NCBI GenBank assembly: GCA_035353995.1
Contig: DAOQAL010000002.1
Span: 99,762 to 163,761, forward strand
Length of the DNA: 64,000 nt
Direction of reading: 5' to 3'
Origin: Minisyncoccota bacterium
Lineage (GTDB): Bacteria > Patescibacteriota > Minisyncoccia > Phycocordibacterales > UBA9973
Shown: positions 5,885 to 64,000 of the stretch, piece by piece
Layout: each line of letters starts with the position of its first letter
How positions within the stretch are numbered: position 1 is the first letter of the stretch
The notes under the pieces: model-generated
The model's database searches: none
Seen by the model: only the letters and a program-made list of their open reading frames with translations
Told to the model about the DNA's origin: nothing
Translations under genes and position numbers: made by a program

Positions 5885-6499
5885 TTATTGTCTATTTTTA
5901 AGAGCATTTTTTATTGTGTCATTGTCCGAATATTCAAGTTCTGTACCAGTAGAAAGGCCACGCCCTAAGGATGATATTTTAATTCCAAATAATTCTGTGA
6001 TATTTTTAATTTCACTTCTAATATAAAGATCAGTGTGGTCTCCTTGTGGACTTAAAGAAAATGCCAATATAATTTCTTTTAATTCTTTTCCATCTTTTTT
6101 TATTTTTTGTATAAGTTCATTTACGCGTATTCTACTTTTAGTATTCTTTTCTACTATTGGTACTAATCCTCCTAAAATAAAATATTTTCCGTGATAACTT
6201 CTACTTTTTTTTATACTTTCAAAATCTGAATCTTTTTCAACTATCATCAAGATGGAATTATCGGTATGTGGACTGGAACAAATATCACAAATTTTATTTT
6301 CATTATTTTTTACAATAAAAAATCTAAAACATTCCTTGCATTGTGTTATCTCTTTCTTTAAATCTTTTATTAAAAGAAGAAAATTTTCAACGTAACTTTG
6401 ATTTTTAGACATTAAAAAATAAACAAAACGTTTTGCTTGTCTTTCTCCAATTCCTGGAAATTCTTTAAATATTTCTGTTAGTTTTTCTATCGTGTCCAT
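5885..6499 (-). CDS. recR: recombination protein RecR
   Basis: C4 zinc finger (CKECFRFF...CDICS) followed by a Toprim-like region. Length 204 aa. Confidence 0.85.
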   Translation of the reverse strand: MDTIEKLTEIFKEFPGIGERQAKRFVYFLMSKNQSYVENFLLLIKDLKKEITQCKECFRFFIVKNNENKICDICSSPHTDNSILMIVEKDSDFESIKKSRSYHGKYFILGGLVPIVEKNTKSRIRVNELIQKIKKDGKELKEIILAFSLSPQGDHTDLYIRSEIKNITELFGIKISSLGRGLSTGTELEYSDNDTIKNALKNRQ

Positions 6500-23662: not shown

Positions 23663-24628
23663 ATGATTAAGAAAAAATTAAAAATCGGGATACTTTTGGG
23701 TGGCCGATCCGCAGAGCATGAAGTATCTATTATTTCTGCTAAGAACGTTATTAAAGCACTCGATAAAGATAAATATAAAATATTTCCTATAAAAATAAAT
23801 AAAGACGGAAAATTTAATTTTGAAAAATTAAAAGGTTTAGACGTTATCTTTCCAGTTCTTCATGGGCCATTTGGCGAAGATGGAAGCATGCAAGGATTTT
23901 TAAAAATTTTGAATTTGCCTTTTGTTGGTCCTAGTGTATTAGGTTCTGCAGTTGGTATGGATAAAGATGTTATGAAGAGACTTTTTAGAGATGCTGGAAT
24001 CCCTATTGGAAAATTTGTTACGGCTAGAATTCAAGATCAAATTTCTTTTAAAGATGTTTCAAAAAAATTAGGATTGCCTATGTTTATAAAGCCGGCTAAT
24101 CTTGGTTCTTCTGTTGGAATACATAAAATAAAAAATGAAAAAGAATTTATTGCAGGATTAAAAGACGCATTTTGTTATGATACAAAAATTGTTATTGAAG
24201 AAAATATTGATGGTAGGGAAATAGAATGTTCTGTTCTTGGTAATGAAAATCCTATAGCATCAACGCCAGGAGAAATAATTTCCAATGCAGATTTTTATTC
24301 TTATGATTCAAAATATATAGACAATAAATCTATTTGTAAAATTCCAGCAGATTTACCCAAAGACGTTATTAAAAGAGTTAAGGATTTAGCTATAGAAGTT
24401 TTTAAAGTTTTAAATTGTGAGGGCATGGGACGTGTTGATGTTTTTGTTAAGAAAAATGGCGAAGTTATTGTAAATGAAATAAATACTCTTCCCGGTTTTA
24501 CATCTATAAGCATGTATCCAAAAATGTGGGAGTCTGACGGGTTACCCATTACAAAACTTTTAGACAAATTGATCGATCTTGGTATGGAAAGATTTGAAAG
24601 AGAAAAAAAATTAAAATCAGTAAAATAA
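23663..24628 (+). CDS. ddl: D-alanine--D-alanine ligase
   Basis: KIGILLGGRSAEHEVS N-terminus and an ATP-grasp C-terminal half. Length 321 aa. Confidence 0.85.
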   Translation: MIKKKLKIGILLGGRSAEHEVSIISAKNVIKALDKDKYKIFPIKINKDGKFNFEKLKGLDVIFPVLHGPFGEDGSMQGFLKILNLPFVGPSVLGSAVGMDKDVMKRLFRDAGIPIGKFVTARIQDQISFKDVSKKLGLPMFIKPANLGSSVGIHKIKNEKEFIAGLKDAFCYDTKIVIEENIDGREIECSVLGNENPIASTPGEIISNADFYSYDSKYIDNKSICKIPADLPKDVIKRVKDLAIEVFKVLNCEGMGRVDVFVKKNGEVIVNEINTLPGFTSISMYPKMWESDGLPITKLLDKLIDLGMERFEREKKLKSVK

Positions 24629-25814: not shown

Positions 25815-25973
25815 ATGTCACAAGATAGACTTATAAAACTTGCTTGCGGGACTTGTAAAAGAATTAATTATTGGTCAAGTAAAAATAAAAAGCTTGTAAC
25901 CAAGAAAATTGAACTTAAAAAGTATTGCAAATGGTGCAAAAAGCAAACTAAGCACAAGGAAATCAAAAAATAG
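25815..25973 (+). CDS. rpmG: 50S ribosomal protein L33 (52 aa; below the ORF-track length cutoff)
   Basis: Hand-translated as MSQDRLIKLACGTCKRINYWSSKNKKLVTKKIELKKYCKWCKKQTKHKEIKK. Two CxxC pairs and the overall pattern match L33. Confidence 0.8.
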   Translation: MSQDRLIKLACGTCKRINYWSSKNKKLVTKKIELKKYCKWCKKQTKHKEIKK

Positions 25974-26144
25974 TTTTTATTATTTTTTTTGATATGTTAC
26001 AATAGCTCTTGCAGTAAATGTTTACTGCTTGTTCTTTATACTTTAGGAGTTCGTCCTTAAGAACGAATTCCAAGAGATATGGAACTTTTTTAATTTTCCT
26101 TATCTCTATCCAGCTCTATCTTTTTACTAAGATAGGGTTTGGAT

Positions 26145-26215
26145 GGGCGATTAGTTAAGTGGTATAACTACGGTCTCCAAAACCGTTGTCGGGAGTTCGA
26201 TTCTCTCATCGCCCG
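26145..26215 (+). tRNA. tRNA-Trp (anticodon CCA)
   Basis: Cloverleaf folded by hand. Acceptor GGGCGAT/ATCGCCC, anticodon stem ACGGT/ACCGT with loop CTCCAAA, and T-arm GGGAG-TTCGATT-CTCTC. The 3' CCA is not encoded. Confidence 0.85.
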
Positions 26216-26251
26216 CTACAACAAGCACAGGACAGCTTAATGCTGTCCGAA
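26211..26251. repeat. direct repeat copy 1 (tRNA-Trp 3' end plus downstream GGACAG-loop-CTGTCC hairpin)
   Basis: GCCCGCTACAACAAGCACAGGACAGCTTAATGCTGTCCGA recurs at 27291-27335 with 2 mismatches. Att-like. Confidence 0.55.
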
Positions 26252-26263
26252 AGCGTACTCGCG

Positions 26264-26358
26264 TTTCTCTCATCGCCCGCCTTCGCTCGCAGTAGCGAGC
26301 TACGGCGGGTAAAACCCGTTAGTAGTTCCGCGAAGGCGAGAAGGTATCATGTATTAAC
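26264..26358. other. partial duplicate of tRNA-Trp T-arm/acceptor (TCTCTCATCGCCCGCC) followed by GC-rich nested hairpins
   Basis: Sixteen nt identical to tRNA positions 26203-26218, then CCCGCC...GGCGGG enclosing GCTCGC-AGTA-GCGAGC, then CCTTCGC...GCGAAGG. G+C is far above the local background. Confidence 0.5.
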
Positions 26359-26430
26359 GACCCCATAGGTCTTGCCTCTGGGGTACTCTGGGGTAACTCT
26401 CGACCCCATAGGTCTTGCCTCTGGGGTACA
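26359..26430. repeat. island palindrome family, copies 1-2 (tandem)
   Basis: (C)GACCCCATAGGTCTTGCCTCTGGGGTA repeated twice back to back. Copy 1 carries an internal CTCTGGGGTA duplication. Confidence 0.7.
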
Positions 26431-26566
26431 GAAGGCCCGCTACACCTTGATTTATTTTCTAACTATGTTATTATGCAGATAATGATAGTTTTTTGACATT
26501 CGGTTTTATTGGTTTCCAAACGAGATAAATAATTGTCTTTTGTGGAAACCTTTAAAACCATAAAAA

Positions 26567-27160
26567 ATGAAAAGAATATTTTCAACATTAAGTCCAAAAT
26601 ATGTTTTGGTCTCTTTCTCCAAAGACGGAAAAAGAAAAAGAATAATTCTAAAAGAATTTGGAGTCTGTAGTATTGGCACATATGAAAACATAAAAGCCAT
26701 AGAAAGTGCCCTTACGGATTCCGGTGTTTATCTGACTGACTTGGTCAAGAAAACTATTTCTAGCACAGCTTTTAAATTTACAAGACAAAAAAAAGTTCAA
26801 CTATTCATTCAGATTTCAGCCTCTGATCTTGGCTTCAAAAATGGTGGTAGGTATAAGGATATTATTAACAGCATATTAGGTGCTGTGGTGATATTACGAG
26901 GGAGAAAATACATAGTAGAGTTTTGTCTTCCCGAAGTTGCCTTGTATTTACGTCTACAGTATAAAAATCAACCAGTAGAACCAATTGAAGTTGAAGAGCG
27001 AGTTGATGTTGTTATGGAGCCGATAAAAGGAGAAAGGAATGATTATGTTTTACGCCTAGTGCACGATACAGAAGGAATAGCTTTAGCAGGACATCCTGCT
27101 CATGAAAATTGTCCAAGATATTCCGGTGATAAATTTATTTTTTCTCTGCGTGCCAAGTAA
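26567..27160 (+). CDS. hypothetical protein (sole gene in the direct-repeat-bounded 1.08 kb unit)
   Basis: 197 aa ORF with no recognised motif. G+C is higher than host genes. Confidence 0.4.
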   Translation: MKRIFSTLSPKYVLVSFSKDGKRKRIILKEFGVCSIGTYENIKAIESALTDSGVYLTDLVKKTISSTAFKFTRQKKVQLFIQISASDLGFKNGGRYKDIINSILGAVVILRGRKYIVEFCLPEVALYLRLQYKNQPVEPIEVEERVDVVMEPIKGERNDYVLRLVHDTEGIALAGHPAHENCPRYSGDKFIFSLRAK

Positions 27161-27174
27161 TGGCTAGGTTCTAA

Positions 27175-27210
27175 GGGGTTGTTATTTTTTTACGATGACA
27201 ACCCTTTTTT
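27175..27210 (+). terminator. intrinsic terminator
   Basis: GGGTTGT ... ACAACCC stem followed by a T6 run, directly after the 26567 ORF stop. Confidence 0.5.
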
Positions 27211-27290
27211 ATTTCCCCAAACCAATAAATTCCCCAATACTAACCATAACTAAAGGATAGTATTTCAAAAGTTCTGAAATTCCTATACTA

Positions 27291-27335
27291 AGCCCGCTAC
27301 AACAAGCACAGGACAGATTAATGCTGTCCGATAAG
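27291..27335. repeat. direct repeat copy 2 (att-like)
   Basis: AGCCCGCTACAACAAGCACAGGACAGATTAATGCTGTCCGATAAG. Compare with 26211-26251. Confidence 0.55.
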
Positions 27336-27364
27336 TAGTTTTTAATTATGATATAATTTAATTT

Positions 27365-27982
27365 ATGAAACTTATAATTTTTGATTGGTCTGGAGTAATA
27401 AAAGATGGATTGGAGAGCAACTTGTGGATTTGTAATAAAATATTTGAAAAATTCGGAGTACCAACTATTTCACTTGAGGAATTTAAAGAAAATTATGAAC
27501 TTCCTTACATGAATTTTTTTAAGAAATATATTCCTAGTCTAACTCTTGAAGAAGAACGAATTATATATAAAAAATATATATTTGATATAAATTGTCCAAA
27601 ATCTAAATCGTGCTTAGGTATTATTGAATTAATTAAGAAACTAAAAGAAAATAATTATCACTTAGCAGTGGTAAGCTCTGATTTTCCAGGAACAATTTTT
27701 GCAGAAATAAAAGAGTATGGGTTGGAAAATATTTTTGATGATGTAATTACAGGTATATATAATAAACTCGAAGGTGTTAATAATGTTATAAAAAAAAGAA
27801 ATTTTGATTTAAGTAATACTTTTTTTGTTGGTGATACTAATCATGAAATAGAAGTGGCAAGACAGGCAGGTATAAAAAGCATAGCAGTAACTTGGGGGTT
27901 TTGTTCTGAGCAAAAACTTAAATTAGAAAATCCAGATTATCTTGTGCATAATTCAAATGAATTAGAAAAGATTCTTTTGTAA
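27365..27982 (+). CDS. HAD-superfamily hydrolase-like protein
   Basis: N-terminal IIFDWSGVI (motif I with DWSG rather than DxDG) and GDTNHEIEVARQAG (motif IV-like). Length 205 aa. Confidence 0.45.
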   Translation: MKLIIFDWSGVIKDGLESNLWICNKIFEKFGVPTISLEEFKENYELPYMNFFKKYIPSLTLEEERIIYKKYIFDINCPKSKSCLGIIELIKKLKENNYHLAVVSSDFPGTIFAEIKEYGLENIFDDVITGIYNKLEGVNNVIKKRNFDLSNTFFVGDTNHEIEVARQAGIKSIAVTWGFCSEQKLKLENPDYLVHNSNELEKILL

Positions 27983-28053
27983 ATCTTGTGTACATTGTGC
28001 ACTTTATAGATAAATTAAATCTACAATACTTATCCCCAAAAAAACAAAAATAA

Positions 28054-28080
28054 GCCCCCGCAAAAAAATTTTGCGGAGGC
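28054..28080. terminator. bidirectional terminator hairpin
   Basis: GCCCCCGCAAAA-AAA-TTTTGCGGAGGC, a 12-bp stem with one mismatch, flanked by A/T runs. It lies between convergent genes. Confidence 0.5.
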
Positions 28081-28142
28081 TTAAGTGTTTAAGAGTTAAA
28101 ATAATCTGGGAGATTATTTTAAGGTCCTCAAGTAATCAAGTA

Positions 28143-28943
28143 TCACTTCCTAGCGACCGACAAACCGAGATCGCTACTGCGGTGACTATCCCAGTAGCCG
28201 CCGACGTTCAGACCCCCGCCGTCAAAGAAGCCGACGTTGACGTGATCGCCGCCCGAGTCGAGGCTTGATGTGCGGACATAAATTCCGCCAAACAAGTAAA
28301 CGTCTCTGACTGCTTTGTAGGTTGTGATTGCCCAGGTGAATTCAGCAGAATTCGGTACAGTTTCAACATCGGAAATCAGGGTTTGCTGTTCTTCCCAGTT
28401 TTTAGAAGTTGATTCGGGGACAGGGTTCTTGCGAATCATGTACCATTTTGTTTCAACTTTGTCTTTCTGTGAAAAATTCTGATCAGCATACCATCCACCA
28501 TCTTTTGAGTAGAAGTAACCATTTTTCATGGTACGAATCTCAAGAAGAGACATTGGACGGTTGGGACCAGCGACAAGCATGTAACTGTTGTCACGGCACC
28601 ATTCCAGAATTTCTTGTGCAGGAACTGTTTCGCCGAACTTGGCAAGCTGTTCTTCGGTGTAAGTAACTCCTTTACGTGATTTCATCACGTCTTCAGGAGA
28701 AATGAAATCCTTACCGAGAATTGTGCGAACCAGTTCATAATCTGGAGCTTTCATGGAGAAACGCTTGATACCTGTAAGCAGGTAAGCAGCGAATCCAGGA
28801 TTCTCATTCAGAACCTGTGCACTTTCTTCTGTCAGTCCAGCCTTATTGTATTGGGCACGAAACGATTCGGTAGCTCTCTGTCCTTTCGGACTGTCTGCGG
28901 TTACCAGTGCAGACGTGTTCAATGACTTTTTCATCGACATCAT
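28143..28943 (-). CDS. hypothetical protein, compositionally foreign (~50% G+C)
   Basis: 266 aa ORF. The DNA is conspicuously GC-rich (e.g. 28150-28280) against an AT-rich genome. It has a Gly-rich C-terminus and no recognised domain. Confidence 0.45.
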   Translation of the reverse strand: MMSMKKSLNTSALVTADSPKGQRATESFRAQYNKAGLTEESAQVLNENPGFAAYLLTGIKRFSMKAPDYELVRTILGKDFISPEDVMKSRKGVTYTEEQLAKFGETVPAQEILEWCRDNSYMLVAGPNRPMSLLEIRTMKNGYFYSKDGGWYADQNFSQKDKVETKWYMIRKNPVPESTSKNWEEQQTLISDVETVPNSAEFTWAITTYKAVRDVYLFGGIYVRTSSLDSGGDHVNVGFFDGGGLNVGGYWDSHRSSDLGLSVARK

Positions 28944-28990
28944 CCTTTATTGGTTTTACCGAAATCGCTCGGCAACGGCTTTTCTCGTTA

Positions 28991-29043
28991 ATGAGATGAG
29001 CTTTTTAAGTCCTATAATATAAGGCATAAAAAGCTCATCTCAT
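28991..29043. promoter_or_regulatory. perfect 17-bp inverted repeat (ATGAGATGAGCTTTTTA / TAAAAAGCTCATCTCAT) enclosing a TATAAT box
   Basis: Seen directly, immediately upstream of the 28143..28943(-) gene. Candidate operator or hairpin. Confidence 0.4.
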
Positions 29044-29116
29044 GGAAGTGATATTTTAAAAGAACTCTTTCTATTATATCATATATAATGCTTTTGTCAA
29101 TAAACTATTTTGCATT

Positions 29117-29159
29117 ACCCCATAGGTCACCCCATAGGTCTTGCCTCTGGGGTAACTCT
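29117..29159. repeat. island palindrome family, copy 3 (with a 12-nt partial duplicate in front)
   Basis: ACCCCATAGGTC + ACCCCATAGGTCTTGCCTCTGGGGTAACTCT. Confidence 0.7.
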
Positions 29160-29303
29160 TTACTTTTAATAACATTCGTGGTATTGTACCATTACAATGG
29201 TTCTTTGAAATTGAACATGATTATTACTTGTTTGGATTACCTTGCACTTCCTTTGGGAGTTTGAAGTAATCCAAATGAGTATAAACAATTAAAGACAATA
29301 GTT

Positions 29304-29633
29304 ATGGAAAAATTAAAAAAATACCGACTAGGTAATCAGCCTACTGAGTATGAACTTGTTACAGAATATTTAGGGTGGCTTCCTGAAGACGCATCAAGTT
29401 GGTGGGACGTGTTCCAAATAATGGTTTCTTCTTCTGAAATTACAGGTAAAGAAATAACCATTACTAATCCTGAAAAAAATAAAAAAATTACAATTATTAT
29501 TGACCATAGAATTGTAAAAGATGCATTTCCCATGTCTTTTTTCGTGGAGGAGAGAGCAAAAAATTGGTATGATTTTTGTATTGTATCAAGTAAGGATAAA
29601 CCATCTGAAAAATTTATTATTCCACTTCACTAA
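29304..29633 (+). CDS. hypothetical protein
   Basis: 109 aa ORF with no recognised motif. It is preceded by a 10-bp inverted repeat (TTTGGATTAC ... GTAATCCAAA, 29231-29274). Confidence 0.35.
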   Translation: MEKLKKYRLGNQPTEYELVTEYLGWLPEDASSWWDVFQIMVSSSEITGKEITITNPEKNKKITIIIDHRIVKDAFPMSFFVEERAKNWYDFCIVSSKDKPSEKFIIPLH

Positions 29634-29688
29634 GTAGGGGGTATCCGAGCTTGAAGAGCTGGCATTTTTGTGTCAGCTTTTTTTATTT

Positions 29689-29720
29689 CTACATAGGTCT
29701 TGCCTCTGGGGTAACGGAGT
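29689..29720. repeat. island palindrome family, copy 4 (5' arm degenerate)
   Basis: CTACATAGGTCTTGCCTCTGGGGTAACGGAG. Confidence 0.6.
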
Positions 29721-29808
29721 ATTTTTCCATACTTGACTTTATCAATTTAAAGATGTATTATTAAACTGATATTTTATATAGTTCTTAACATTTAAAAAGG
29801 AGGTTTAA

Positions 29809-30408
29809 GTGAAAGATTTATTTGTCTGGCTTACCGTGATCACAATGACCACGTTTATTATTATTTATGTATACCAGATTTATAAGCATAAAATTTTTCC
29901 AGCTCTGTCTACTTGGATTATATTTCTTTGTGGAGTTGGCCTAAGTTTTGTTACTTATATTATTTCAGAAAAAAATGATTTAAGTTCTGGCGTATTAAAT
30001 ACCATAGATCTCCTGAACGTAGTAGTTGTAACTATCGCAATAATTCTTTGGGGTAAAAGAAGTCTACATCTTAAGCCTTTTGAAAAATGGTATTTAGTTG
30101 CTGTTGGTTTAATTATTTTTTATGGAATAATAACTGGTGATGCATGGAGTTCAAATATCTTAACTCAAGTATTAATTAGTGTTGGATATTTTCCAACCAT
30201 ACACGGTTTATTAAAAAGTAGGGTAAACACAGAATCATTCATTGGGTGGGGAATTAACTTGCTTGTTAGCTTTTTTGCCTTATACCCAGCATCGGTTAAT
30301 GGTAACCTGCTTGCAATAATTTATGCAACCAGAGCAGCCGTCCTTATCTCTGTATTATTAATAATAATGGTTTATTGTGAATTGACTAAAAAGAAAAAAC
30401 TAGCCTAG
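29809..30408 (+). CDS. polytopic membrane protein with GTG start and strong SD
   Basis: 199 aa with about 6 TM helices. AAGGAGGT lies 7 nt upstream of GTG, which is atypical for this genome. It is homologous to the 61313..61912(-) ORF (shared YQI.K, W, and Y..T/RKK tail). Confidence 0.5.
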   Translation: MKDLFVWLTVITMTTFIIIYVYQIYKHKIFPALSTWIIFLCGVGLSFVTYIISEKNDLSSGVLNTIDLLNVVVVTIAIILWGKRSLHLKPFEKWYLVAVGLIIFYGIITGDAWSSNILTQVLISVGYFPTIHGLLKSRVNTESFIGWGINLLVSFFALYPASVNGNLLAIIYATRAAVLISVLLIIMVYCELTKKKKLA

Positions 30409-30457
30409 TACCGAAAGGGAAAGGCTTTTTTTATTTTATTCTTATGTCTTTGATACT

Positions 30458-30494
30458 GAGTTACCCCATAGGTCTTGCCTCTGGGGTAACTAGG
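30458..30494. repeat. island palindrome family, copy 5 (longest: 14-bp arms)
   Basis: GAGTTACCCCATAGGTCTTGCCTCTGGGGTAACTAGG. Confidence 0.7.
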
Positions 30495-30538
30495 TTTTAC
30501 TTGAACAATCTTTTTTCTTCCTTTTCAAAAGTTGTCAG

Positions 30539-30575
30539 AGCCAACCCCATAGGTCTTGCCTATGGGGTTCTTACC
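30539..30575. repeat. island palindrome family, copy 6 (perfect variant)
   Basis: GCCAACCCCATAGG-TCTTG-CCTATGGGGTTCTTACC. Eleven-bp perfect arms with CTCTGGGG changed to CTATGGGG. Confidence 0.7.
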
Positions 30576-30708
30576 TCCGTATAAAATACTATTGATTTTT
30601 TTGTATAGTATGTTATACTTTTAGTAATAAAAGTTTTTTTAAAAAAGTGGTTTTTGGTTTTCATAGGAGATAAATTTTGTCTTTTACGAAAACCAAAAAC
30701 CTCTAAAG

Positions 30709-31422
30709 ATGAAAAAAATCGTTTTTATTTTTGCAATGATGATGACATTCTCATCTTTGCAATTTGTGTACGCACAGGAAAATGTCGTACAGAACTGGAA
30801 TTTCCAAGAAGATTCGGACAATGACGGACAAGGAGATTATTGGACTTCACTTTGCTCTCCGTCTGTTTTTTCATGGAGCATCGTATACGGTGTTCAGTAT
30901 GTAAAGTGCGATTCAGTGTATTGTTACTCCGGGTCATTGGTGCAATATTTTCCGGATTCAATAATGCCTGGAACGTATATGCTTGAATTTGATACGTATT
31001 GTAGCAGAATTCTATGGCCATTTGTTGTACTACATGATTACAAACTGTCTTTCATCGGCACGGTTGTGCCGTCGACATGGCAACACTACGAAATTACATT
31101 TACTTCGTTAGCTTGGATAAGCGGTGTCGGTTTTTTAGCTGAGAGTGCAATTTCTCAAATAAAAATGGACAATGTAAAGTTGTATTTGCTATATGGAGTA
31201 GGATGTGAAAAACAAAAAGTAAAGCAATTAAAATTCTACCCGAATCCGGTCACTGATTACGTAAATATTTATTCATACGAAAATAAAAGAATCAGTATCT
31301 ACGATGTCTCCGGAACAAATTTTGGTCATTTTGATTTATTAAATGGTCAAAACAAGATCAATATGAGTTTTCTACCGTCTGGAATTTACATATTAGACGG
31401 ACAGAAAGTTCTGAAGAAATAG
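30709..31422 (+). CDS. secreted Cys-rich protein with Bacteroidetes-type T9SS (Por) C-terminal sorting domain
   Basis: Signal peptide ending ...VYAQ. The C-terminus KFYPNPVTDYVNIYSYENKRISIYDVSGTNF ... LPSGIYILDGQKVLKK matches the T9SS CTD consensus. G+C is elevated and there is no SD. Confidence 0.6.
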   Translation: MKKIVFIFAMMMTFSSLQFVYAQENVVQNWNFQEDSDNDGQGDYWTSLCSPSVFSWSIVYGVQYVKCDSVYCYSGSLVQYFPDSIMPGTYMLEFDTYCSRILWPFVVLHDYKLSFIGTVVPSTWQHYEITFTSLAWISGVGFLAESAISQIKMDNVKLYLLYGVGCEKQKVKQLKFYPNPVTDYVNIYSYENKRISIYDVSGTNFGHFDLLNGQNKINMSFLPSGIYILDGQKVLKK

Positions 31423-31439
31423 GGGGAAGTGGGAAAAAG

Positions 31440-31472
31440 GGAGGTCTCAATCAAAATGAACCTCCTTTTTTT
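31440..31472. terminator. intrinsic terminator (bidirectional)
   Basis: GGAGGT ... ACCTCC hairpin plus T7 run, between convergent genes. Confidence 0.6.
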
Positions 31473-32592
31473 AATTTGTACTATCTACTAAATATTTTTG
31501 TATATTTTTTTGATGCTCTTCATAAGTTGCCGAGCAGTGTGTTACACGATTTTTATCATGCAAATAGTATAAGCAATCTGTTTCTGTTGGATTTAATACT
31601 GCTTCAATTGCTGGTATACCTGGATTTGATATAGGATGTGGTGGTAATCCTTTATATTTATATGTATTAAAAGGGGAGTCACTTTCTTTTTCAGAAATAG
31701 TAATTGGAGCCCACCAACCATTTCCGATATCTCCTCGTGCGTATTGTAACGTTGCGTCTACACCTAAAAACATATTTTGGTTTAGTCTGTTCCATAAAAT
31801 TCCAGCAATTAATGGTATATCAGCATTATTTGATGCTTCTCTTTGAACTATTGATGCTAAAGTCAATGCTCTTGCCCATTTTATATTTTTTTCTGTAAAT
31901 TTAGGTAAATAAGAAACAAATTTTTCATTAAATTTTGATATTAAACGTTTTGCCATTAAAGATGGCTCTTCTGTAACAGGTATTAAATATGTATCAGGAT
32001 AATAAACACCTTCTATATATTCTTTACTTACGGCTGTGTCTTTTGTTATCCAATCATTTTTTTGTTTTGAAGACCAATTAAAAGTATCTGCAAGAATTGT
32101 TGCTATTTCTTCTTTTCTCAATCCTTCTTTTATTACTACCCATTTCATATAAGGATTCCCATGTAATACTTTATTAATTTGAGATTCTGTCATTTCTTTT
32201 GATAATTTATATGCTCCACTGGAAACTTGATTTTTTTCTTTATTTAATATTTCTGTAAAACTTTTTGAATCTTTTATAAAACCAGCTTGTAATAAACTAT
32301 CTGCAATTTCTTCATTTGTTATATTTTTTTGTACTATAAAACGATCTGTGCCTTCAGGTAATACTTCTTCAGGTATTGTTTCAGTTTTTGTTGTAGGAGT
32401 AAGTACAACAGGTTCCTCTATTGTTTTTTCATTTTTTGATTGTGAGTTTTCTACATTTATATCTACATTGTTTTCATTTTCAGATTTATTTTTTTTAAAA
32501 AATACAAAATAGACAGCAATTAAAATAATTATTGCTATTAAAAGTATTAATAAAATTTTTTTCGTTTTAGTCATTTTTTTGGTGTAATCCAT
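31471..32592 (-). CDS. mltG: endolytic murein transglycosylase MltG (YceG family)
   Basis: N-terminal TM anchor. The C-terminal block NTYKYKGLPPHPISNPGIPAIEAV matches the YceG/MltG signature (NTY...GLPP.PI.NPG). Confidence 0.7.
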   Translation of the reverse strand: MDYTKKMTKTKKILLILLIAIIILIAVYFVFFKKNKSENENNVDINVENSQSKNEKTIEEPVVLTPTTKTETIPEEVLPEGTDRFIVQKNITNEEIADSLLQAGFIKDSKSFTEILNKEKNQVSSGAYKLSKEMTESQINKVLHGNPYMKWVVIKEGLRKEEIATILADTFNWSSKQKNDWITKDTAVSKEYIEGVYYPDTYLIPVTEEPSLMAKRLISKFNEKFVSYLPKFTEKNIKWARALTLASIVQREASNNADIPLIAGILWNRLNQNMFLGVDATLQYARGDIGNGWWAPITISEKESDSPFNTYKYKGLPPHPISNPGIPAIEAVLNPTETDCLYYLHDKNRVTHCSATYEEHQKNIQKYLVDSTN

Positions 32593-39715: not shown

Positions 39716-40591
39716 TCATATCAATTTTATTTCTCCTAATTCTTCTTTTATTATCTCTTTTATTTCCATTATAGAAAGTAAAGAATTTGCTGTTGCTATA
39801 GGCATTTTCATTGCTCTTATAAGTTCATCTCTTGGCATAGGTTCACGTAAAATTTTTACAACCATTTTTTCTTCAGGAGAAATATCTTCAAAAAGTTTTG
39901 CTTGTCTATCTTCGTCTTTTTCTTTTTCAAAACCAAGAGCTTCTAGAACATCTTCTGCAGAAGTTACTGGTGTTGCACCTTGTTTGATTAATTTATTAGT
40001 TCCTTTTGAATTTAAACAAAAAATTGATCCTGGAACTGCAAGTAAATCTCTATTATATTCAGTTGCTAATCTCGCTGTAATTAAAGTTCCAGATTTTTCT
40101 TCTGCTTCAATTACAAGTATTGCTTTTGAAATGCCTGCCATTAATCTATTACGCATTGGGAAAGACCATTGAGTTGCTTTAAAATCTGGTTCAAATTCTG
40201 AAATTAAACATCCACCACTTTCTACAATATCTTTTACTAAACGAACATTTGTTTTTGGATACATAGCTTCGTCTGAAAGTCCTGAGCCTGGAAAAACTAT
40301 AGTTTTTAAACCTACCTGCATTGCTTTTTTATGTGCTATCGTGTCTATGCCCATAGCAAAGCCAGAGACTATAACTATTGGATAACCCTTAAGACCATTT
40401 ATTATTTTTTCACAAGCTTCTTTTCCGTAAGATGTAAATTTTCTTGAACCAACAACACATAAATAAATTAAATCTTTATTTTGTTTTGGCAGATCGCCAA
40501 TAATCCAAAGATTTTCTGGTGGTTGTGGTATTTCCATTAAAGCATTGGGAAATTGTTTTTTTGGTAATTTTTGAATTTTCATATATTGCAA
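39716..40591 (-). CDS. dprA: DNA processing protein DprA (Smf)
   Basis: Rossmann-like region with GSRKFTSYG and IVSGFAMGIDTIAH. Length 291 aa. Confidence 0.8.
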   Translation of the reverse strand: MQYMKIQKLPKKQFPNALMEIPQPPENLWIIGDLPKQNKDLIYLCVVGSRKFTSYGKEACEKIINGLKGYPIVIVSGFAMGIDTIAHKKAMQVGLKTIVFPGSGLSDEAMYPKTNVRLVKDIVESGGCLISEFEPDFKATQWSFPMRNRLMAGISKAILVIEAEEKSGTLITARLATEYNRDLLAVPGSIFCLNSKGTNKLIKQGATPVTSAEDVLEALGFEKEKDEDRQAKLFEDISPEEKMVVKILREPMPRDELIRAMKMPIATANSLLSIMEIKEIIKEELGEIKLI

Positions 40592-47544: not shown

Positions 47545-48606
47545 ATGAAAGAAAATTATGGTGAAAATAAAGATGTTTCGATTGAAAAATTTAAAGACCT
47601 AAGAAAATTGGACTTATCTAATAAGGACTTAAAAAATATCCCTGTTGTTGTTCTAATGACCACAGATTTTGATACTGAAACGAAATGGCCAAGTAAAGAA
47701 AAATTACCATTAAATTTTAATCCTGAAGTTGTTTTAGAAAATGGTAAAAACTCAGGATTAGGCATTAAAGAATTACACGAACAAGGTATCACTGGAAAAG
47801 GGATAAATGTTGCGATTATAGACCAAAAATTAGATTTAAATCATAAAGAATATTCTGACAATGTAATTAACTATAAAGAATTTGGTAAATCAGGAAAAGA
47901 AGATATAAGTATGCACGGTCCAGCAGTAGCGAGTTTGTTTATCGGTAAAAATTGTGGAATAGCCCCAGAAGCAAAACTTTATTACGAAGCCAATCCATCT
48001 GCTGGTAATTCCAATTGGGATTGTTCCTCTGAGGGTTTGAATAAAATTATTGATTTCAATAATACAGTAGAAGAAAAAGATAAAATAAAAGTGGTTAGTT
48101 TTAGTAATGGACATCCAAATCCAGCTTTTAAGGGTAATTTAAAAAACTGGAAAGAAACAGTTAAAAAAGCAAAAAATAGTGGAATAATTTTTATTGATGC
48201 AAATACTTTTTTTGATTCAAATTTTATTGCTGGTGGCAGTAGTGGTGATAAAGAAAATATAGATGAATATAAAATTTGGTTAGCTATAGATAATAAAATT
48301 CCTATGTTTGATAAGATTAATTCGTCTTGGAATAAAAAAGATAGAATAGTTGTGCCTGCTGATTACAGAACAGTAGCTTCTTCTATAAATAAAAGTGGCG
48401 AGTATTGTTTTTACGGAAGAGGTGGAATTAGTTGGGCAATTCCATATTTAGCTGGAGTATGTTCTTTAATGTTGCAAATTAATGCTAACTTAAAAATGGA
48501 AGAAATAGTTAAAATTATTCAAACTACAGCTCTTGTAAATAAAGATGGTTTAAAGATTATTAACCCTAAAGGAGCGATAGAATCAGTAAGAACTCTAGCG
48601 GTCTAA
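47545..48606 (+). CDS. subtilisin-like (S8) peptidase-like protein with non-canonical motifs, no signal peptide
   Basis: GKGINVAIIDQ (Asp block), SMHGPAVAS (His block), GGISWAIPYLAGV (Ser block). These are D-H-S arranged as in subtilases but diverged from DTG/HGT/GTSMA. Confidence 0.45.
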   Translation: MKENYGENKDVSIEKFKDLRKLDLSNKDLKNIPVVVLMTTDFDTETKWPSKEKLPLNFNPEVVLENGKNSGLGIKELHEQGITGKGINVAIIDQKLDLNHKEYSDNVINYKEFGKSGKEDISMHGPAVASLFIGKNCGIAPEAKLYYEANPSAGNSNWDCSSEGLNKIIDFNNTVEEKDKIKVVSFSNGHPNPAFKGNLKNWKETVKKAKNSGIIFIDANTFFDSNFIAGGSSGDKENIDEYKIWLAIDNKIPMFDKINSSWNKKDRIVVPADYRTVASSINKSGEYCFYGRGGISWAIPYLAGVCSLMLQINANLKMEEIVKIIQTTALVNKDGLKIINPKGAIESVRTLAV

Positions 48607-50054: not shown

Positions 50055-50675
50055 TTATTTAATATAATTATTATTAAAAATAAGAAATTCTTTAATTTGT
50101 TCTGGTTTTAATTTTTTATCTATATCCCATTTAAAATGGGGCTGTTCTATTGTACGACCAATGTAAAAATCATATATAACATTTCTATACTGTAAATGTT
50201 CTATCTTTTTTATCATTGAAGAAACAAACTCATCTAAAAAAATTAATAATTGTGATGGAGAAAAAGATCTTGATTGAAATTTATTCTGAGGATATCTTGA
50301 TATTTCTTCTAAATGAGATAATAATGGCAATTTTTCAATTAAATTTTTTTCTTCAAAAAATTTATCTTTTCTTGCACATATATTAGCCCAGTATTCTAAT
50401 TTGTGTCCATTTTTTAAAAAGTCATCACATTTATTTTTTTTACCCGGATTAATCTCAATATTATTATCTAAGACAAAAGCTTTCATATATTTTTCCATGC
50501 ATTGTTGCAGGTGATAAAGACCCTGATCTGTTAAGTCCATGTTGAGCAATATACGGCAAGAAATATAATCTTCTTCAGCCTTTTGCAAGAAAATACCTCT
50601 AAAATAATCAATAGCCCATTCTTTATTGTCGTCTTCCTTAAATTTTTCTAATGATAAGCTAGCTTTGTTCTCCAC
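50055..50675 (-). CDS. HEPN-like domain protein
   Basis: YHLQQCMEKYMKAFVL ... NGHKLEYW resembles the HEPN helix pair (YH.QQ..EK.LKA.L ... H.L). Confidence 0.45.
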   Translation of the reverse strand: MENKASLSLEKFKEDDNKEWAIDYFRGIFLQKAEEDYISCRILLNMDLTDQGLYHLQQCMEKYMKAFVLDNNIEINPGKKNKCDDFLKNGHKLEYWANICARKDKFFEEKNLIEKLPLLSHLEEISRYPQNKFQSRSFSPSQLLIFLDEFVSSMIKKIEHLQYRNVIYDFYIGRTIEQPHFKWDIDKKLKPEQIKEFLIFNNNYIK

Positions 50676-50777
50676 TGCTATAATTGTATCACTATTAAAA
50701 TAAAATGCTTAAAATAACATATCTCGAGCGAAATAACCTCGCTCTTGCTGATTAGGAGACTAGGACCGCGGGTACGC

Positions 50778-51047
50778 TTATCTCCCTCGACTAAATTTTA
50801 AATAATTTGCCAATTGTTTTTTAAGAAACTTATACCCAGAACCGCTTTTCAAAAATTTTTCTCTGCCTATAGCATCTCTTTTGTCTACATAAGCTTCATA
50901 GTAGATTAATCTCCAATCTGTTTTTCTGCTCGTTGTTTGACCTCCATTTCCAGATAAATGGTTTTGCAATCTTTTCTTTAGGTTGCTTGAATATCCTATA
51001 TACCAACTCTTATCATTTTTTGATTCTAAAAGATATATATAATACAT
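50778..51047 (-). CDS. GIY-YIG nuclease family protein
   Basis: YIYLLESKNDKSWYIGYSSNLKKRLQNH is the GIY-(x10)-YIG motif plus a conserved R and N. Start is moved to the internal Met (MYYIY), because the tracked N-terminus is a translation of the tandem repeat. Confidence 0.65.
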   Translation of the reverse strand: MYYIYLLESKNDKSWYIGYSSNLKKRLQNHLSGNGGQTTSRKTDWRLIYYEAYVDKRDAIGREKFLKSGSGYKFLKKQLANYLKFSRGR

Positions 51048-51053
51048 AAATCT

Positions 51054-51134
51054 GGTCGCGTAAAAGCTAAAGCTCACGCGACTCACGATACATTAATATT
51101 GGTCGCGTAAAAGCTAAAGCTCACGCGACTCACG
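51054..51134. repeat. two identical 34-nt direct repeats (GGTCGCGTAAAAGCTAAAGCTCACGCGACTCACG), each a hairpin
   Basis: Copies at 51054-51087 and 51101-51134, upstream of the GIY-YIG gene. Confidence 0.75.
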
Positions 51135-51210
51135 TAAAATGCTTCGCATCCACCTGGCATTCCCTTACAGGGCCTGACACGTGGAAAATTGTAAAGCAAT
51201 TTTCTTTACG

Positions 51211-51284
51211 TGGCTGGGAGACTAGGAATCGAACCTAGATTAAAGGCTTCAAAGGCCTCTGTCCTACCGTTAGACGATCTCCCA
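51211..51284 (-). tRNA. tRNA-Gln (anticodon TTG), CCA encoded
   Basis: Hand-folded from the reverse complement: TGGGAGA-TC-GTCT-AACGGTA-GGAC-A-GAGGC-CTTTGAA-GCCTT-TAAT-CTAGG-TTCGATT-CCTAG-TCTCCCA-G-CCA. Confidence 0.8.
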
Positions 51285-51420
51285 ATATTAATATTTTTAT
51301 AGAAGATATACTGAATTATATACAAAAGACGATCTCCCAATAAATACTAAATAAATATAACATATTTGACTTTAAATCGGAATATTAAATTTTAGAGTGA
51401 ATTTTTTTTAAAAAAATAAG

Positions 51421-51953: not shown

Positions 51954-53444
51954 TTACTGCTCGATAATTTCTTTGAACAGAATCGCTTCGTTTTTGAGAA
52001 GAAAAGACGGCTTGAAAATTTCATGCCATTTCTTTTCTATTTCCGGATCTTGGAAAAGATCCTTGAGAATCTTGTTGTACTCATCCACATTATTTTGATT
52101 TGCTTGTTGCAGTTGAGAATTTGGTCTCAATTTACCGGTCAAAATAATTTCCTCAATCGAAATGGGCGACTTTGGAGGATTCTTTCTTTTTTCGCACAGA
52201 AGAGACTCAGCTTCCTGGAAACTTTTTGGTGCCTCATCTTCAGGATCGAAAGTATTCACTTCGTCAAAAGCATTAAAGCAGGCGAGCTGTACCAGACGAT
52301 AACACCCTTCATAATCCAGATTGGCTTTTTCAGAAAGATGTTTCTTCAGGAATTCTTTTACTTCACTTGAAGCATAAACTCCACGCGAATCAATAATTTC
52401 CTGAAGCATGTTTCCTCGGTAAACCGTCAAATTGGTGAAGACTTTATTGATCACGTCGAGAGCTCTTGCTACAACATGAAATAAGTCCGGCCAAGCCACT
52501 CTTTCTACCGAAGATTGTTCAATGGAACGCTCTTCCCAGGTTTTAATATTCTCCGTAATGGCAAGGGTGTATCCTTTTGCCAAGCGGGCAAGGCCTTCAA
52601 TCTGTTCGAGTTGGATCGGGTTTTTCTTGTGTGGCATAGCGGAAGATCCTGTTTGCTTTTTCTTGAATGGCTCCTGCAAAAGGGGACGACCACTTCGTGC
52701 ATTCAATCGCACATCGTTGGCGATTTTGTCTAACACCAAGATCATGTTCAGCAGTGCCTGTGCCACAGGTGCGTGCAGTACTCTCGGCAGTATCTGGGTT
52801 GAACCATAAAATGGATTAAACCCAAGGATTTCCAGAGCTCTTTTTTCTACCTCCGGAGAAATACTGCCATAATTACCTACAGCACCGGATACTTTTGACA
52901 AGAATAGTTTTCCGACGACAGCATCAGAAAATGACTTGCGTGCTACTCTTAAATCAGCTTGCCAGGAGAGGGCTCGAGCGCCAAGACTTTTCAACTCGGC
53001 TTCTTGCCCGTGCGTTCTTCCTATCATTACAGTGTAACGATTTTTTCTGGCAAAATTGATGAGGGTTTTCTGGTAAATAGTTAATTTTCCATCAATGATT
53101 TCACAAGCTTGATAAAGCATCTGCAAGAAAGGTGTTTCCTCCGTGTCATAGGAGGTAATCTTGTTGTGTACGTACTTCTGCAGTTTCAAAGGCAAGTGTC
53201 TTACTCGCTCAAGGATAAAGGCGTTGAGATCATGATGAATCTCTTCATCTTTATTTTTCCACCACTCGAGATCAGTGGTTTTTTCGTGCCAGACTCTCGA
53301 AATTTTCTCGTGGGTTCCGGCGGGGATGTACCCGAGCTCCTCTTCTGCCTTTATCACAGCAAGCTCCATTTCTTGCCAGAAAAATGTCTTGTTTGTGTCG
53401 GCAAAAATTTGCTTAATTTCTTTATTAGCATAACGTTCAATCAT
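51954..53444 (-). CDS. purB: adenylosuccinate lyase
   Basis: MIERYANKEI N-terminus and the fumarate-lyase signature GSSAMPHKKNP. Length 496 aa. G+C is visibly higher than in neighbouring host genes. Confidence 0.8.
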   Translation of the reverse strand: MIERYANKEIKQIFADTNKTFFWQEMELAVIKAEEELGYIPAGTHEKISRVWHEKTTDLEWWKNKDEEIHHDLNAFILERVRHLPLKLQKYVHNKITSYDTEETPFLQMLYQACEIIDGKLTIYQKTLINFARKNRYTVMIGRTHGQEAELKSLGARALSWQADLRVARKSFSDAVVGKLFLSKVSGAVGNYGSISPEVEKRALEILGFNPFYGSTQILPRVLHAPVAQALLNMILVLDKIANDVRLNARSGRPLLQEPFKKKQTGSSAMPHKKNPIQLEQIEGLARLAKGYTLAITENIKTWEERSIEQSSVERVAWPDLFHVVARALDVINKVFTNLTVYRGNMLQEIIDSRGVYASSEVKEFLKKHLSEKANLDYEGCYRLVQLACFNAFDEVNTFDPEDEAPKSFQEAESLLCEKRKNPPKSPISIEEIILTGKLRPNSQLQQANQNNVDEYNKILKDLFQDPEIEKKWHEIFKPSFLLKNEAILFKEIIEQ

Positions 53445-61298: not shown

Positions 61299-61335
61299 TA
61301 AAAAGCCGGATGTCATAGATATTCGGCTTTTTTTG
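61299..61335. terminator. bidirectional terminator hairpin
   Basis: AAGCCG-loop-CGGCTT plus a T8 run, between convergent genes. Confidence 0.5.
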
Positions 61336-61912
61336 TTCTGTACGAGTATATCAGTATTACAATTAAACCATTCCCTATAATATTAACGATAGGGTAGACA
61401 AGAGATATTTTTTCTCCGGTATAATTGCATATTACTGTTAACGTAGCAAATACTCCACTTATAATTCCAAGAATCCAGGCAGCCTGATGTTCCTTTTCAC
61501 CATGTAAAATTTGATAAGCTATAGGTAAAAAAGAAATAAAATAAACAATTTGCAATAAAGCATTTGAAACTTGATCGTTTCCGTCAATTACCCAAAATAT
61601 TCCGATAAAAACCACTAAGAATATACAAATAACTTCAGTGACTTTTATCTTTGAAAATTTCTTACAAAGAAGTGCGATGAAAAAAATTCCAACAACTAAA
61701 CACAAATTAGTGATTGTAATTAGTGTTTGCCAAAAATCTTTCACTGCTTCAAAGTAGGTAATAACATTAATGATTGCTTCAAATACCCATAAAGCTACTG
61801 TAACAGGATTAGGACTAGATAATGTTTTATGTATTTGATACGAGTAACGTGTGTACTCGGCAACAGCAAACAATGATGCCAAAATGGCAAAGAACTGACT
61901 TAAAAAAAGCAT
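61313..61912 (-). CDS. polytopic membrane protein, paralogue of the island ORF 29809..30408
   Basis: 199 aa, the same length and TM layout as 29809..30408. Shared blocks are YQIHK..S.P vs YQIYKHKIFP, a central W, and a ..YRTKK tail vs ..ELTKKKK. Confidence 0.45.
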   Translation of the reverse strand: MLFLSQFFAILASLFAVAEYTRYSYQIHKTLSSPNPVTVALWVFEAIINVITYFEAVKDFWQTLITITNLCLVVGIFFIALLCKKFSKIKVTEVICIFLVVFIGIFWVIDGNDQVSNALLQIVYFISFLPIAYQILHGEKEHQAAWILGIISGVFATLTVICNYTGEKISLVYPIVNIIGNGLIVILIYSYRTKKAEYL

Positions 61913-63661: not shown

Positions 63662-64000
63662 ATGCAAAAAATCAAGCATTTTATAGAAAGTGACAAGGGG
63701 AAAGATATTTTAGTTGTTATTATAGTCATTTTAGTGGGTGTAATATCATTTTTTCTGGGTAGATTATCATACACAAACCCTCAAAAAGGCCTTAAAATCG
63801 AATATACGGACCAAGAAGCAAGCGTTGTCAGCTCTTTCGAGAATCCTGAGTCTAATCTGAAATTAACCCCTAGTATCGAAAATAGGGCTAATAATGAAGG
63901 TTCGGGGAAGTATTTTGCATCAAAAATGGGTCATAAGTATTATCCTACTGGCTGTTCTGCTGGAAAAACTATTAAGCAAGAAAATAGAATTTATTTTTCT
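63662..64000 (+). CDS. hypothetical protein with N-terminal TM anchor (3' end runs off the window)
   Basis: ORF open to the window end with an N-terminal hydrophobic helix. Partial. Confidence 0.3.
   Translation, partial: MQKIKHFIESDKGKDILVVIIVILVGVISFFLGRLSYTNPQKGLKIEYTDQEASVVSSFENPESNLKLTPSIENRANNEGSGKYFASKMGHKYYPTGCSAGKTIKQENRIYFS

Follow-up and report, generated by a model that had tools for sequence, protein, structure and literature searches.

Three kinds of described gene-capture system come close to the locus reported here. In tRNA islands formed by tandem accretion, elements insert serially at the 3' end of an intact tRNA, copies of which mark the junctions, and cis-mobilizable elements (CIMEs) are att-bearing units that lack an integrase and depend on its supply in trans. 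Integron arrays grow at a fixed insertion point from small, mostly single-gene cassettes, each with a recombination site at its 3' end and the newest nearest the anchor, and the recombinase gene lies outside the cassettes; attC sites span about 55-141 nt. The tycheposons of Prochlorococcus are tRNA-adjacent islands in which successive integrations are separated by partial tRNAs and older elements are pushed inward, and they carry a tyrosine recombinase together with replication genes (bioRxiv 10.1101/2020.12.28.424599). Here we analyze a 64 kb stretch of DNA, referred to throughout as the window, from contig DAOQAL010000002.1 of a Candidatus Paceibacterota metagenome-assembled genome (MAG), in which an island nominally spanning 26145-31472 begins with tRNA-Trp. 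The flanking alanine racemase (Alr) is 100% identical to a protein named from such MAGs, and the best other Alr homologue shares 79% identity. We consider it probable that the interval from tRNA-Trp to miaA is a hotspot of additive gene capture, into which cassettes that carry a conserved module and no integrase are recombined by a recombinase supplied in trans.

When the locus is compared across relatives, it is apparent that its flanks are conserved and its content is not. We examined 86 loci overall, among them those of three relatives reached by way of Alr and those of 80 species-representative genomes, and alr, rpmG, tRNA-Trp, mltG, miaA and murA were located in each. The order alr-rpmG-tRNA-Trp-gap-miaA(-) is kept in about 30 relatives, and tRNA-Trp itself is 88-99% identical across genera. 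The gap measures 18 nt in L030, 73-154 nt in L023, L025, L045 and L049, 0.4-0.9 kb with one gene or none in L004, L006, L021, L073 and others, 1.6-2.0 kb in six loci, 5.3 kb in L026, 6.4 kb in this window and more than 9.5 kb in L003, L011 and L013. The empty site that a preliminary description of this DNA had proposed to look for is therefore present: tRNA-Trp lies 18-154 nt from miaA in five relatives, one gene stands between them in L004 and L006, and the minimal state occurs in several distinct branches. No open reading frame (ORF) of the island has a tblastn match at the locus in any relative, and rather than the same gene content the relatives carry unrelated cargo there, including methyltransferases, a vitamin transporter, purine genes, LemA and a PfkB kinase. 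Of two close relatives, one has a giant 2956-aa ORF (L013 11968-20838) and the other a 992-aa ORF (L011 11497-14472) followed by purine-biosynthesis genes, so the site accepts inserts of very different sizes. Since conserved flanks enclose an unrelated gap of 18 nt to more than 9.5 kb, the tRNA-Trp/miaA interval is, judged from gene order and content, an insertion hotspot.

The genes upstream of tRNA-Trp are ddl, alr and rpmG, and the convergent host block beyond the hairpin that closes the nominal island is mltG-miaA-murA. The secE-nusG pair, named in the preliminary description as the expected neighbor, does not belong here: relatives keep miaA-murA, and neither SecE nor NusG is among the families listed for the 10 kb downstream. 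Because mltG does not stand beside miaA in any of the 86 related loci, none of which gave an mltG match, the variable segment may reach 32592 rather than 31472, with mltG either relocated or lying within it. The island proteins are identical in at least two NCBI Third Party Annotation MAGs and on 5-7 contigs from several samples, so the island is real and fixed in the species, and all contigs that include flanking genes show the same neighbors. Several assemblies break at the locus, inside the tRNA (L002), exactly at its end (L008) or no more than 300 nt past it (L036, L014), and GCA_964524305.1 ends inside ORF3; these breaks weakly fit repeated or heterogeneous sequence.

The preliminary description had also read an intact tRNA-Trp(CCA), direct repeats of its 3' end inside the island, structured repeats and six cassette-like ORFs, and all of these stand (Table 1), the tRNA in both ARAGORN and Rfam, the tRNA-end repeats in both copies and the structured repeats as a six-copy element, CCCCATAGGTCTTGCCTCTGGGG. 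Of the tRNA-end repeats, 26198-26216 recurs at 26262-26280 (19 nt, 95%) and 26211-26250 recurs at 27292-27331 (40 nt, 98%), matches that were reached in none of 100 shuffles. They bracket only the first 1.1 kb and not the whole 5.3 kb. At their heart lies a recombination core, GCCCGC, which at 26211-26216 covers the last part of the acceptor stem, the discriminator and one base more. Three cores, GCCCGCTACA, start at 26211, 26435 and 27292, a number attained in 1 of 100 shuffles, and the copies at 26435 and 27292 both continue with TACA. The proximal 1.1 kb thereby resolves into three nested segments, A, B and C, each terminating in the core.

The history of these segments can be partly read from L088, a related metagenome contig. 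The CCGAAAGCGTACTCGCGTT block of insert A is 94.7% identical to L088 305-342, and in that contig tctctcatcgcccgc is followed directly by cacaccttgattt, so that the end of A is joined to the start of C. It follows that, in the lineage of the window, insert B entered precisely between duplicated cores. It holds two copies of the hairpin repeat (26357-26388 and 26400-26431), and the 229 nt of A and B together (26217-26445) fold to -98.2 kcal/mol, with z -5.2 against shuffles; no Rfam family matches this stretch. Cassette C consists of a leader with a long hairpin (26441-26566), ORF1, a terminator (27173-27207), a conserved arm of about 85-95 nt (27208-27291) and the core (27292-27297). Its leader is 82% identical to L088 336-485, where it precedes a different ORF, and ORF1 matches only itself in the homologue search. 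Comparison with the other loci, in which the crossover falls at a fixed point immediately after GCCCGC, identifies the tRNA-end repeats as recombination junctions, and the GCCCGC at the end of tRNA-Trp is an attB- or attI-like anchor of recombination.

The arm, the core and what follows them form a cassette-end module of about 150 nt, made of a terminator tail, the arm of about 95 nt, the core, a trailer hairpin and an extended -10 promoter. In the alignment its order is a terminator T-run, TTTATTTCCCnAAAC, AATACTAA, AAAAGTTCTGAAATCCC, about 9 nt, the core (G/T)CCGC, a hairpin with a T-run, CTTAAGTnTTTCCGAAC and TGATATAAT, and the invariant blocks of the arm are AATACTAA and AAAAGTTCTGAAATCCC. 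A hidden Markov model (HMM) built from 8 copies finds one module in the window (27217-27362, E 1e-24) and 14 copies at five other loci, namely 6 in L003, 2 in L057 and 2 each in L087, L088 and L090, and none in the other roughly 80 relatives. L087, L088 and L090 are contigs of one metagenome found by an exact-pattern scan; a fourth match, L089, was rejected as a chance GC-rich hit. One such array is that of L003, whose Alr is 76% identical, where the 7 kb past tRNA-Trp contain copies of a direct repeat of about 90-160 nt and form six cassettes; a repeat finder gave five of the copies, and motif and HMM searches added the sixth. The modules of L003 separate small gene groups, including an unknown ORF, SOUL-MsrB-MsrA, NUDIX-cupin and further unknowns. 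Modules are about 80% identical over about 150 nt, and the cargo is different in every cassette.

When all junctions are tabulated, the sequence to the left of ...CCGC is always an arm or a tRNA end, whereas the sequence to the right of the core falls into at least five unrelated classes, the same classes following tRNA ends and arms alike. In these alignments the module junctions have a fixed crossover point and are joined combinatorially, which argues for site-specific recombination at a short overlap and not for homologous recombination. The arm was tried as a decayed copy of tRNA-Trp and rejected (local alignment against 500 shuffles, z no higher than 1.3), as was a folded, attC-like site made of arm or module, for which RNAalifold predicts 0 conserved pairs. 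Since there is no sign of an attC-like fold, we infer that the arm would be bound as duplex DNA. It has no evident role in gene expression, yet its invariant blocks are kept.

The right half of the module appears to serve expression. In most genes of the window a TATAAT-like box stands 7-10 nt upstream of the ATG and a Shine-Dalgarno sequence (SD) is lacking, as at 5885-6499, 23663-24628 and 47545-48606, an arrangement that implies leaderless mRNAs and suggests that translation in the host organism is mainly leaderless. The extended -10 box TGATATAAT lies 7 nt before the ATG of ORF2, in the same layout as the leaderless genes of the host, and the mRNA of ORF2 would be leaderless and driven by this box of the module. 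From this arrangement each module junction seems both to end one cassette and to express the next.

Placed beside the described systems, the locus shows likeness and difference in each case and belongs to none of them. The features of tRNA islands and CIMEs set out above recur here, namely insertion at an intact tRNA 3' end, tRNA-end repeats at junctions, serial inserts and att-bearing units that would rely on an integrase in trans, but none of the units at the six loci encodes an integrase, the units measure only 64 nt to 1.9 kb with 0-3 genes, the identity to the tRNA is about 6 nt, and every coding unit has a module of about 150 nt that gives it a terminator and a promoter. With tycheposons the locus shares a streamlined genome, a tRNA anchor, serial integration, degenerated remnants and adaptive cargo; it differs in having no tyrosine recombinase and no replication or mobility module, and in its host, a member of the candidate phyla radiation (CPR). 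Only one true partial tRNA copy is present (26262-26280), the other separators being a dedicated arm that shares the 6-nt core. The integron-like features are the fixed insertion point, the small cassettes with a 3' site each, the proximity of the newest to the anchor and the absence of the recombinase from the cassettes, whereas here the anchor is a tRNA end and not attI, no IntI occurs in the window, the site has no conserved fold and the cassettes bring their own promoters. In orientation, the L003 array and most ORFs of the window run the same way, ORF3 is inverted with a promoter of its own, and the modules carry -10 boxes. We found no description of such CPR arrays in the full-text literature, of which coverage was incomplete.

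These comparisons show the last bases of tRNA-Trp, GCCCGC, acting as a fixed crossover point at which segments of 64 nt to about 1.9 kb have been inserted one after another. Each segment ends in a core copy of its own, so that newer inserts push older ones away from a tRNA that stays intact. We suggest the following mechanism. The module would be the recombination site of the cassette, like attP or attC in role, and any core-to-core segment could be excised as a circle and re-inserted, following an integron-like logic. The recombinase, most likely of the tyrosine type, would be encoded elsewhere in the genome or on a helper element. The distal cargo (the HAD gene, ORF3 and ORF4-6) would be older or differently acquired, its junction modules having been lost or replaced. 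Whereas the hotspot, the nested cores, the precise entry of segment B, the conserved module and the fixed switch point are observed, we infer the recombinase, the circular intermediates and a common route of origin for the distal 4 kb. Of the two options left by the preliminary description, a passive capture locus serviced in trans is favored over a single decayed element. A more far-reaching version, which we put forward only tentatively, is that this Paceibacteria clade possesses an undescribed integron-like capture system at tRNA-Trp, in which a module of about 150 nt with no detectable conserved fold serves as site, terminator and promoter for leaderless expression of the next cassette, and the trans-acting recombinase may be of a new specificity or family. 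Under that possible but less probable reading, non-coding GC-rich mini-cassettes would be shuffled as well, and a similar process may act at a tRNA-Gln elsewhere in the window.

As the preliminary description had stated, no integrase or recombinase is encoded by the six ORFs, according to Pfam, PHROGs and NCBIfam, and 20 further ORFs of the window are housekeeping or unknown, none of them a recombinase. When every ORF of the 86 loci was screened by regular expressions, a crude test, no motif of a tyrosine or serine recombinase turned up, and no integrase occurs among the 25 Pfam families listed, of 53 in all, for the hotspot cargo of relatives. ORF1 was considered as a small recombinase and rejected, since it has no homologue and the other cassettes lack it, so it is not a general enzyme. 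Just outside the window, 1-2 kb past position 64000, lies a prophage-like block (L095 11300-20933) with AAA_24, Phage_rep_O, a ParB-methylase, a DNA methylase and portal/Mu F genes. An integrase at the far end of this block could act in trans; none is visible in the stretch examined.

Several observations weigh against our preferred account. The key actor is hypothetical, no recombinase having been found in the island, in the window or beside the array loci, and neither a circular junction nor an empty/occupied polymorphism was seen, so the island is not visibly active in the species. The att signature is confined to 26211-27362, with one full module in the window and none at E of 1 or below in 27365-31470 by HMM, and most of the length of the island is therefore assigned to the mechanism by position and not by signature. 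The modules are known from six loci of one narrow clade, and the exact att pattern has 0 matches in 185k species-representative genomes; it has likewise 0 matches in viral contigs. The arrays were found to share no cargo and no cassette was seen twice, the shared core is only 6 nt long, and in the arm neither obvious core sites in inverted repeat nor a conserved fold can be seen.

The most serious competing explanation, although we judge it rather unlikely, is homologous exchange, for example by natural transformation, in which the tRNA and the module or miaA would serve as anchors for a double crossover and no dedicated recombinase would be needed. The high identity of tRNA-Trp across genera and that of the modules would provide such anchors, the window encodes DprA (39716-40591; compare L004 and L006), the right half of the module is an ordinary terminator and promoter, and the failure to find a recombinase would need no further account. 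What this leaves unexplained is why each insert has a GCCCGC end of its own, why unrelated right-hand classes begin at the same base, how a 160-nt non-coding insert came to lie exactly between duplicated cores, and why the arm keeps invariant blocks that have no evident role in expression. A single entry at tRNA-Trp by one integrative element, such as a prophage or a remnant of an integrative and conjugative or mobilizable element that has since lost its integrase and most of its genes, is improbable. It would produce tRNA-end direct repeats without an integrase and would fit the one clearly foreign ORF and the prophage-like region about 33 kb away, beyond the right end of the window, but the repeats enclose 1.1 kb and not 5.3 kb, there are three nested cores and not two, and in L003 as many as six unrelated cassettes are divided by this one module. 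Apart from a weak match of the HAD gene, no island ORF has a phage-family match, and the composition of most ORFs is host-like.

That there is no island at all, and that the genes are ancestral, specific to the lineage and lost in relatives, with the repeats being terminators or elements like repetitive extragenic palindromes (REPs), we regard as very improbable. The host-like composition of most ORFs and the identity of the locus in all assemblies of the species fit such a history, and at only 79% Alr identity the closest available relative gives no view of the recent past; however, the tRNA abuts miaA in several branches, no two relatives agree with the window in content, insertion has left scars in the form of duplicated tRNA ends and of the insert that L088 lacks, and ORF3 has 85% DNA identity to copies in unrelated contexts. 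Least credible of all is a cluster of attC sites lacking an integron integrase (CALIN), in which the hairpins or the modules would be attC sites recombined as folded single strands by IntI. Cassette-like ORFs separated by repeats in a single orientation, and an imperfect palindrome with a conserved mismatch, do recall such a cluster, but the hairpin is only 26-32 nt long and ends in GTTAC...GTAAC instead of RYYYAAC...GTTRRRY, the module has 0 predicted pairs, the cassettes have their own promoters, and the anchor is a tRNA end and not an attI beside intI. Additive capture by a trans-acting recombinase remains the account that we prefer.

Table 1. Features of the tRNA-Trp island and its right-hand border, in window coordinates
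Feature	Position	Strand	Evidence or remarks
tRNA-Trp(CCA), intact, full length	26145-26216	+	ARAGORN and Rfam, 66.6 bits
Insert A, 64 nt	26217-26280	+	trailer hairpin 26230-26248, block CCGAAAGCGTACTCGCGTT, tRNA 3' end copy 26262-26280 ending in core
Insert B, 160 nt, non-coding, GC-rich, strongly folded	26281-26440	+	starts CTTCG; core copy 26435-26440
Cassette C	26441-27297	+	leader, ORF1, terminator, arm, core
ORF1, 197 aa, ORFan	26567-27160	+	G+C 0.350
att module, right half	27298-27364	+	tRNA trailer copy (hairpin 27311-27329) and extended -10 TGATATAAT at 27349-27357
ORF2, HAD-family phosphatase, 205 aa	27365-27982	+	PF13419 3.6e-26; G+C 0.262, host-like
Self-contained gene unit, about 980 nt	28124-29100	-	promoter, leader, ORF3
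ORF3, 263/266 aa (start 28934/28943)	28143-28943	-	G+C 0.467
Hairpin copy 3, GTCACCCCATAGGTCTTGCCTCTGGGGTAACT	29126-29157	+	12-nt partial copy precedes at 29115-29128
ORF4, 109 aa, no family match	29304-29633	+	G+C 0.312
Hairpin copy 4	29685-29716	+	5'-truncated, fused to TTTTTATTTC terminator tail of ORF4
ORF5, 199 aa, hydrophobic, GTG start	29809-30408	+	G+C 0.318
Hairpin copies 5 and 6	30460-30491, 30541-30572	+	DNA folds -11.9 and -11.5 kcal/mol, z about -5
ORF6, 237 aa, T9SS-type C-terminal sorting domain	30709-31422	+	G+C 0.359
Hairpin GGAGGT-N14-ACCTCC and T7, common to convergent ORF6 and mltG	31440-31472	.	read in sequence
mltG (YceG)	31471-32592	-	PF02618 7e-67; host-like G+C; 22-nt overlap with miaA

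The distal 4 kb of the island are marked by the hairpin repeat CCCCATAGGTCTTGCCTCTGGGG, whose six copies, all on the plus strand, extend over 26361-30567, two of them inside segment B and four between ORF3, ORF4, ORF5 and ORF6. The repeat is an intergenic, imperfect palindrome of 26-32 nt, GTTACCCCATAGG-TCTTG-CCTCTGGGGTAAC, with a conserved mismatch and no homology in its flanks, and full copies fold stably as DNA with z about -5; in copy 6 a C-to-A change closes the mismatch in the stem. No further copy occurs in the rest of the 64 kb, in about 14 kb of additional flanking sequence, at any other locus or in viral contigs. In being an intergenic imperfect palindrome of this length that is sometimes paired, it resembles REPs and bacterial interspersed mosaic elements, from which it differs in having six copies within 4.2 kb, all in one orientation, and none in the other roughly 74 kb examined; among the annotated ORFs no ORF like a REP-associated tyrosine transposase was seen. 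The TTTTTATTTC tail to which copy 4 is fused normally begins an arm, and copies 5 and 6 sit at remaining fragments of arms (GATACT... and CAAAAGTTGTCAGAG). From this fusion and these fragments it may be that the hairpin replaced or interrupted older modules.

Long, nearly perfect leader hairpins stand just upstream of the start codons of ORF1 (in the leader already described), ORF4 (29225-29281) and ORF6 (hairpin 30646-30704 within a leader at 30592-30708). The leaders of ORF1 and ORF6 are alike, and they are 75-82% identical to leaders of L088 (336-470 and 1400-1487) that stand before unrelated ORFs; leaders at L003 11658-11778 and L087 2511-2630 are related to each other, and the leader hairpin of ORF4 has no such sequence match. 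ORF2 has no counterpart at the locus in relatives, and ORF5 is found only in this species. The preliminary description had noted that ORF5 has a GTG start 5 nt after AAGGAGGT while host genes rarely show an SD, which agrees with our count, since an SD-like match of at least 4 nt occurs in merely 4 of 51 other genes. A second strong SD besides that of ORF5, AAGGAGG, precedes an unknown ORF at 61313-61912 (-). The type IX secretion system (T9SS) C-terminal sorting domain that had been read in ORF6 is likewise present, at residues 177-230, with PF18962 Por_Secre_tail at 6e-10 (39.7 bits against a cutoff of 27) and TIGR04183 at 29.1 against 23. The N-terminus of ORF6 is signal-peptide-like. Over its full length ORF6 is an ORFan with relatives for the C-terminal 60 aa only, and because only this tail has relatives no donor lineage can be named. 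Neither an outer membrane nor a T9SS is known from CPR bacteria. The hairpin that closes the nominal island is missed by the terminator scan because its loop is longer than 8 nt.

ORF3 stands apart from the other genes of the island. It was described as about 50% G+C, and although it is indeed a GC-rich outlier the measured value is 46.7%; genes of this type have 47-50% G+C in hosts of 32-36%. Its gene unit, which reaches from just past the stop codon to the -35 box, has 85% DNA identity to copies in L091, L092 and L093 with unrelated flanks. The promoter is a perfect TTGACA-16-TGnTATAAT (29100-29073), and the leader contains a long hairpin (28991-29043). The family has 283 members, about 265 aa long and without a Pfam domain, and the only named sources are Patescibacteria MAGs; homologues are up to 91% identical, which makes them more conserved than Alr. 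In the last 35 residues of 51 homologues, invariant positions alternate with positions that take 10-14 residue types; ten positions are hypervariable (2.7-3.4 bits, eight of them above 3), and G232, V235, V237, R255, G260 and R265 are invariant. One homologue, P0124, is encoded directly upstream of bAvd and an RVT_1 reverse transcriptase, and the homologue in L093 has downstream of it a copy resembling a template repeat (TR), with 8 of 13 mismatches at A. In its alignment, the ORF3 family shows the variable-protein signature of diversity-generating retroelements (DGRs).

The likeness of ORF3 to the DGR target proteins of CPR thus lies in its variable C-terminus and in the one homologue beside bAvd and a reverse transcriptase. 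It differs from them in that the window contains no TR, Avd or reverse transcriptase and the sequence is fixed in the species: the variable region (VR) of ORF3 matches only itself, and the protein is identical on seven contigs. ORF3 is for these reasons apparently an orphan, static copy. The structure model is modest (predicted local distance difference test 66, with the VR below 50), and the fold search gave no match, including to C-type-lectin DGR targets. Two of the loci with ORF3 homologues also encode a large serine recombinase (L091 12566-13927 and L092 7034-8395; Resolvase, Recombinase and Zn_ribbon_recom), which lies with DNA methylase, HATPase/Ymh and HEPN genes 5 kb from the ORF3 homologue; this region looks like a mobile defense island.

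A compositional shift over the whole 5.3 kb had been described, and this is true of the tRNA-proximal non-coding stretch and of ORF3 and not of the remaining island. In 400-nt windows, G+C above 0.42 is restricted to 26000-26600 (the tRNA and non-coding sequence) and to 28000-29000, the latter patch being due to the ORF3 gene; the baseline for ORFs is 0.296 +/- 0.035 over 50 other ORFs of the window. The tetranucleotide distance is an outlier (z 2.1-3.2) solely over ORF3, with the remainder of the island within about 1 sd. The composition argument for a foreign island is therefore weak except for ORF3. Outside the island, a Lyase_1 ORF of the fumarase/aspartase type at 51954-53444 (-), beside tRNA-Gln, has G+C 0.421 and is the top tetranucleotide outlier of the window, its z of 3.9 exceeding that of the island.

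Two other non-coding stretches were noted. The spacer between rpmG and tRNA-Trp (25974-26144) is kept across genera, with counterparts at L003 11380-11505, L036 6945-7068, L057 6255-6368 and L088 1-150. It begins with the hairpin GCAGTAAATGTTTACTGC and a T-run, reaches only 28.6 bits against a threshold of 48.7 for Rfam TD-2, and could be the terminator of rpmG together with a promoter or leader of the tRNA. At the tRNA-Gln site (50760-51284, minus strand), the tRNA is followed by about 160 nt of GC-rich sequence with two copies of a direct repeat of about 35 nt, cgtgagtcgcgtgagctttagcttttacgcgacca, next by an N-terminally truncated GIY-YIG nuclease ORF (Pfam 1.2e-12), and then by a degenerate 16-nt copy of the tRNA 3' end near 50764 and a HEPN gene. 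The arrangement resembles another insertion anchored at a tRNA 3' end, the second in the window. In Rfam searches of 25950-31500 and 50600-51400 the tRNAs alone pass the thresholds, and all else lies far below the gathering scores.

The genomes of CPR bacteria, or Patescibacteria, are tiny, and little is understood of how these organisms acquire and exchange accessory genes. The tRNA-Trp locus offers a defined anchor, the last six bases of the tRNA, and a searchable site, AATACTAA and AAAAGTTCTGAAATCCC followed by GCCCGC, in arrays of up to six cassettes with stress, redox and surface functions. If no recombinase exists, it would still be a clean case of a hypervariable hotspot anchored at a tRNA, at which MAG assemblies break. 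Should a recombinase acting in trans come to light, the locus would add to integrons another cassette-array system of independent origin, in a major radiation without cultured members. In that case the module could mark flexible genes in CPR metagenomes and would be a candidate for site-specific integration in organisms that at present lack genetic tools.

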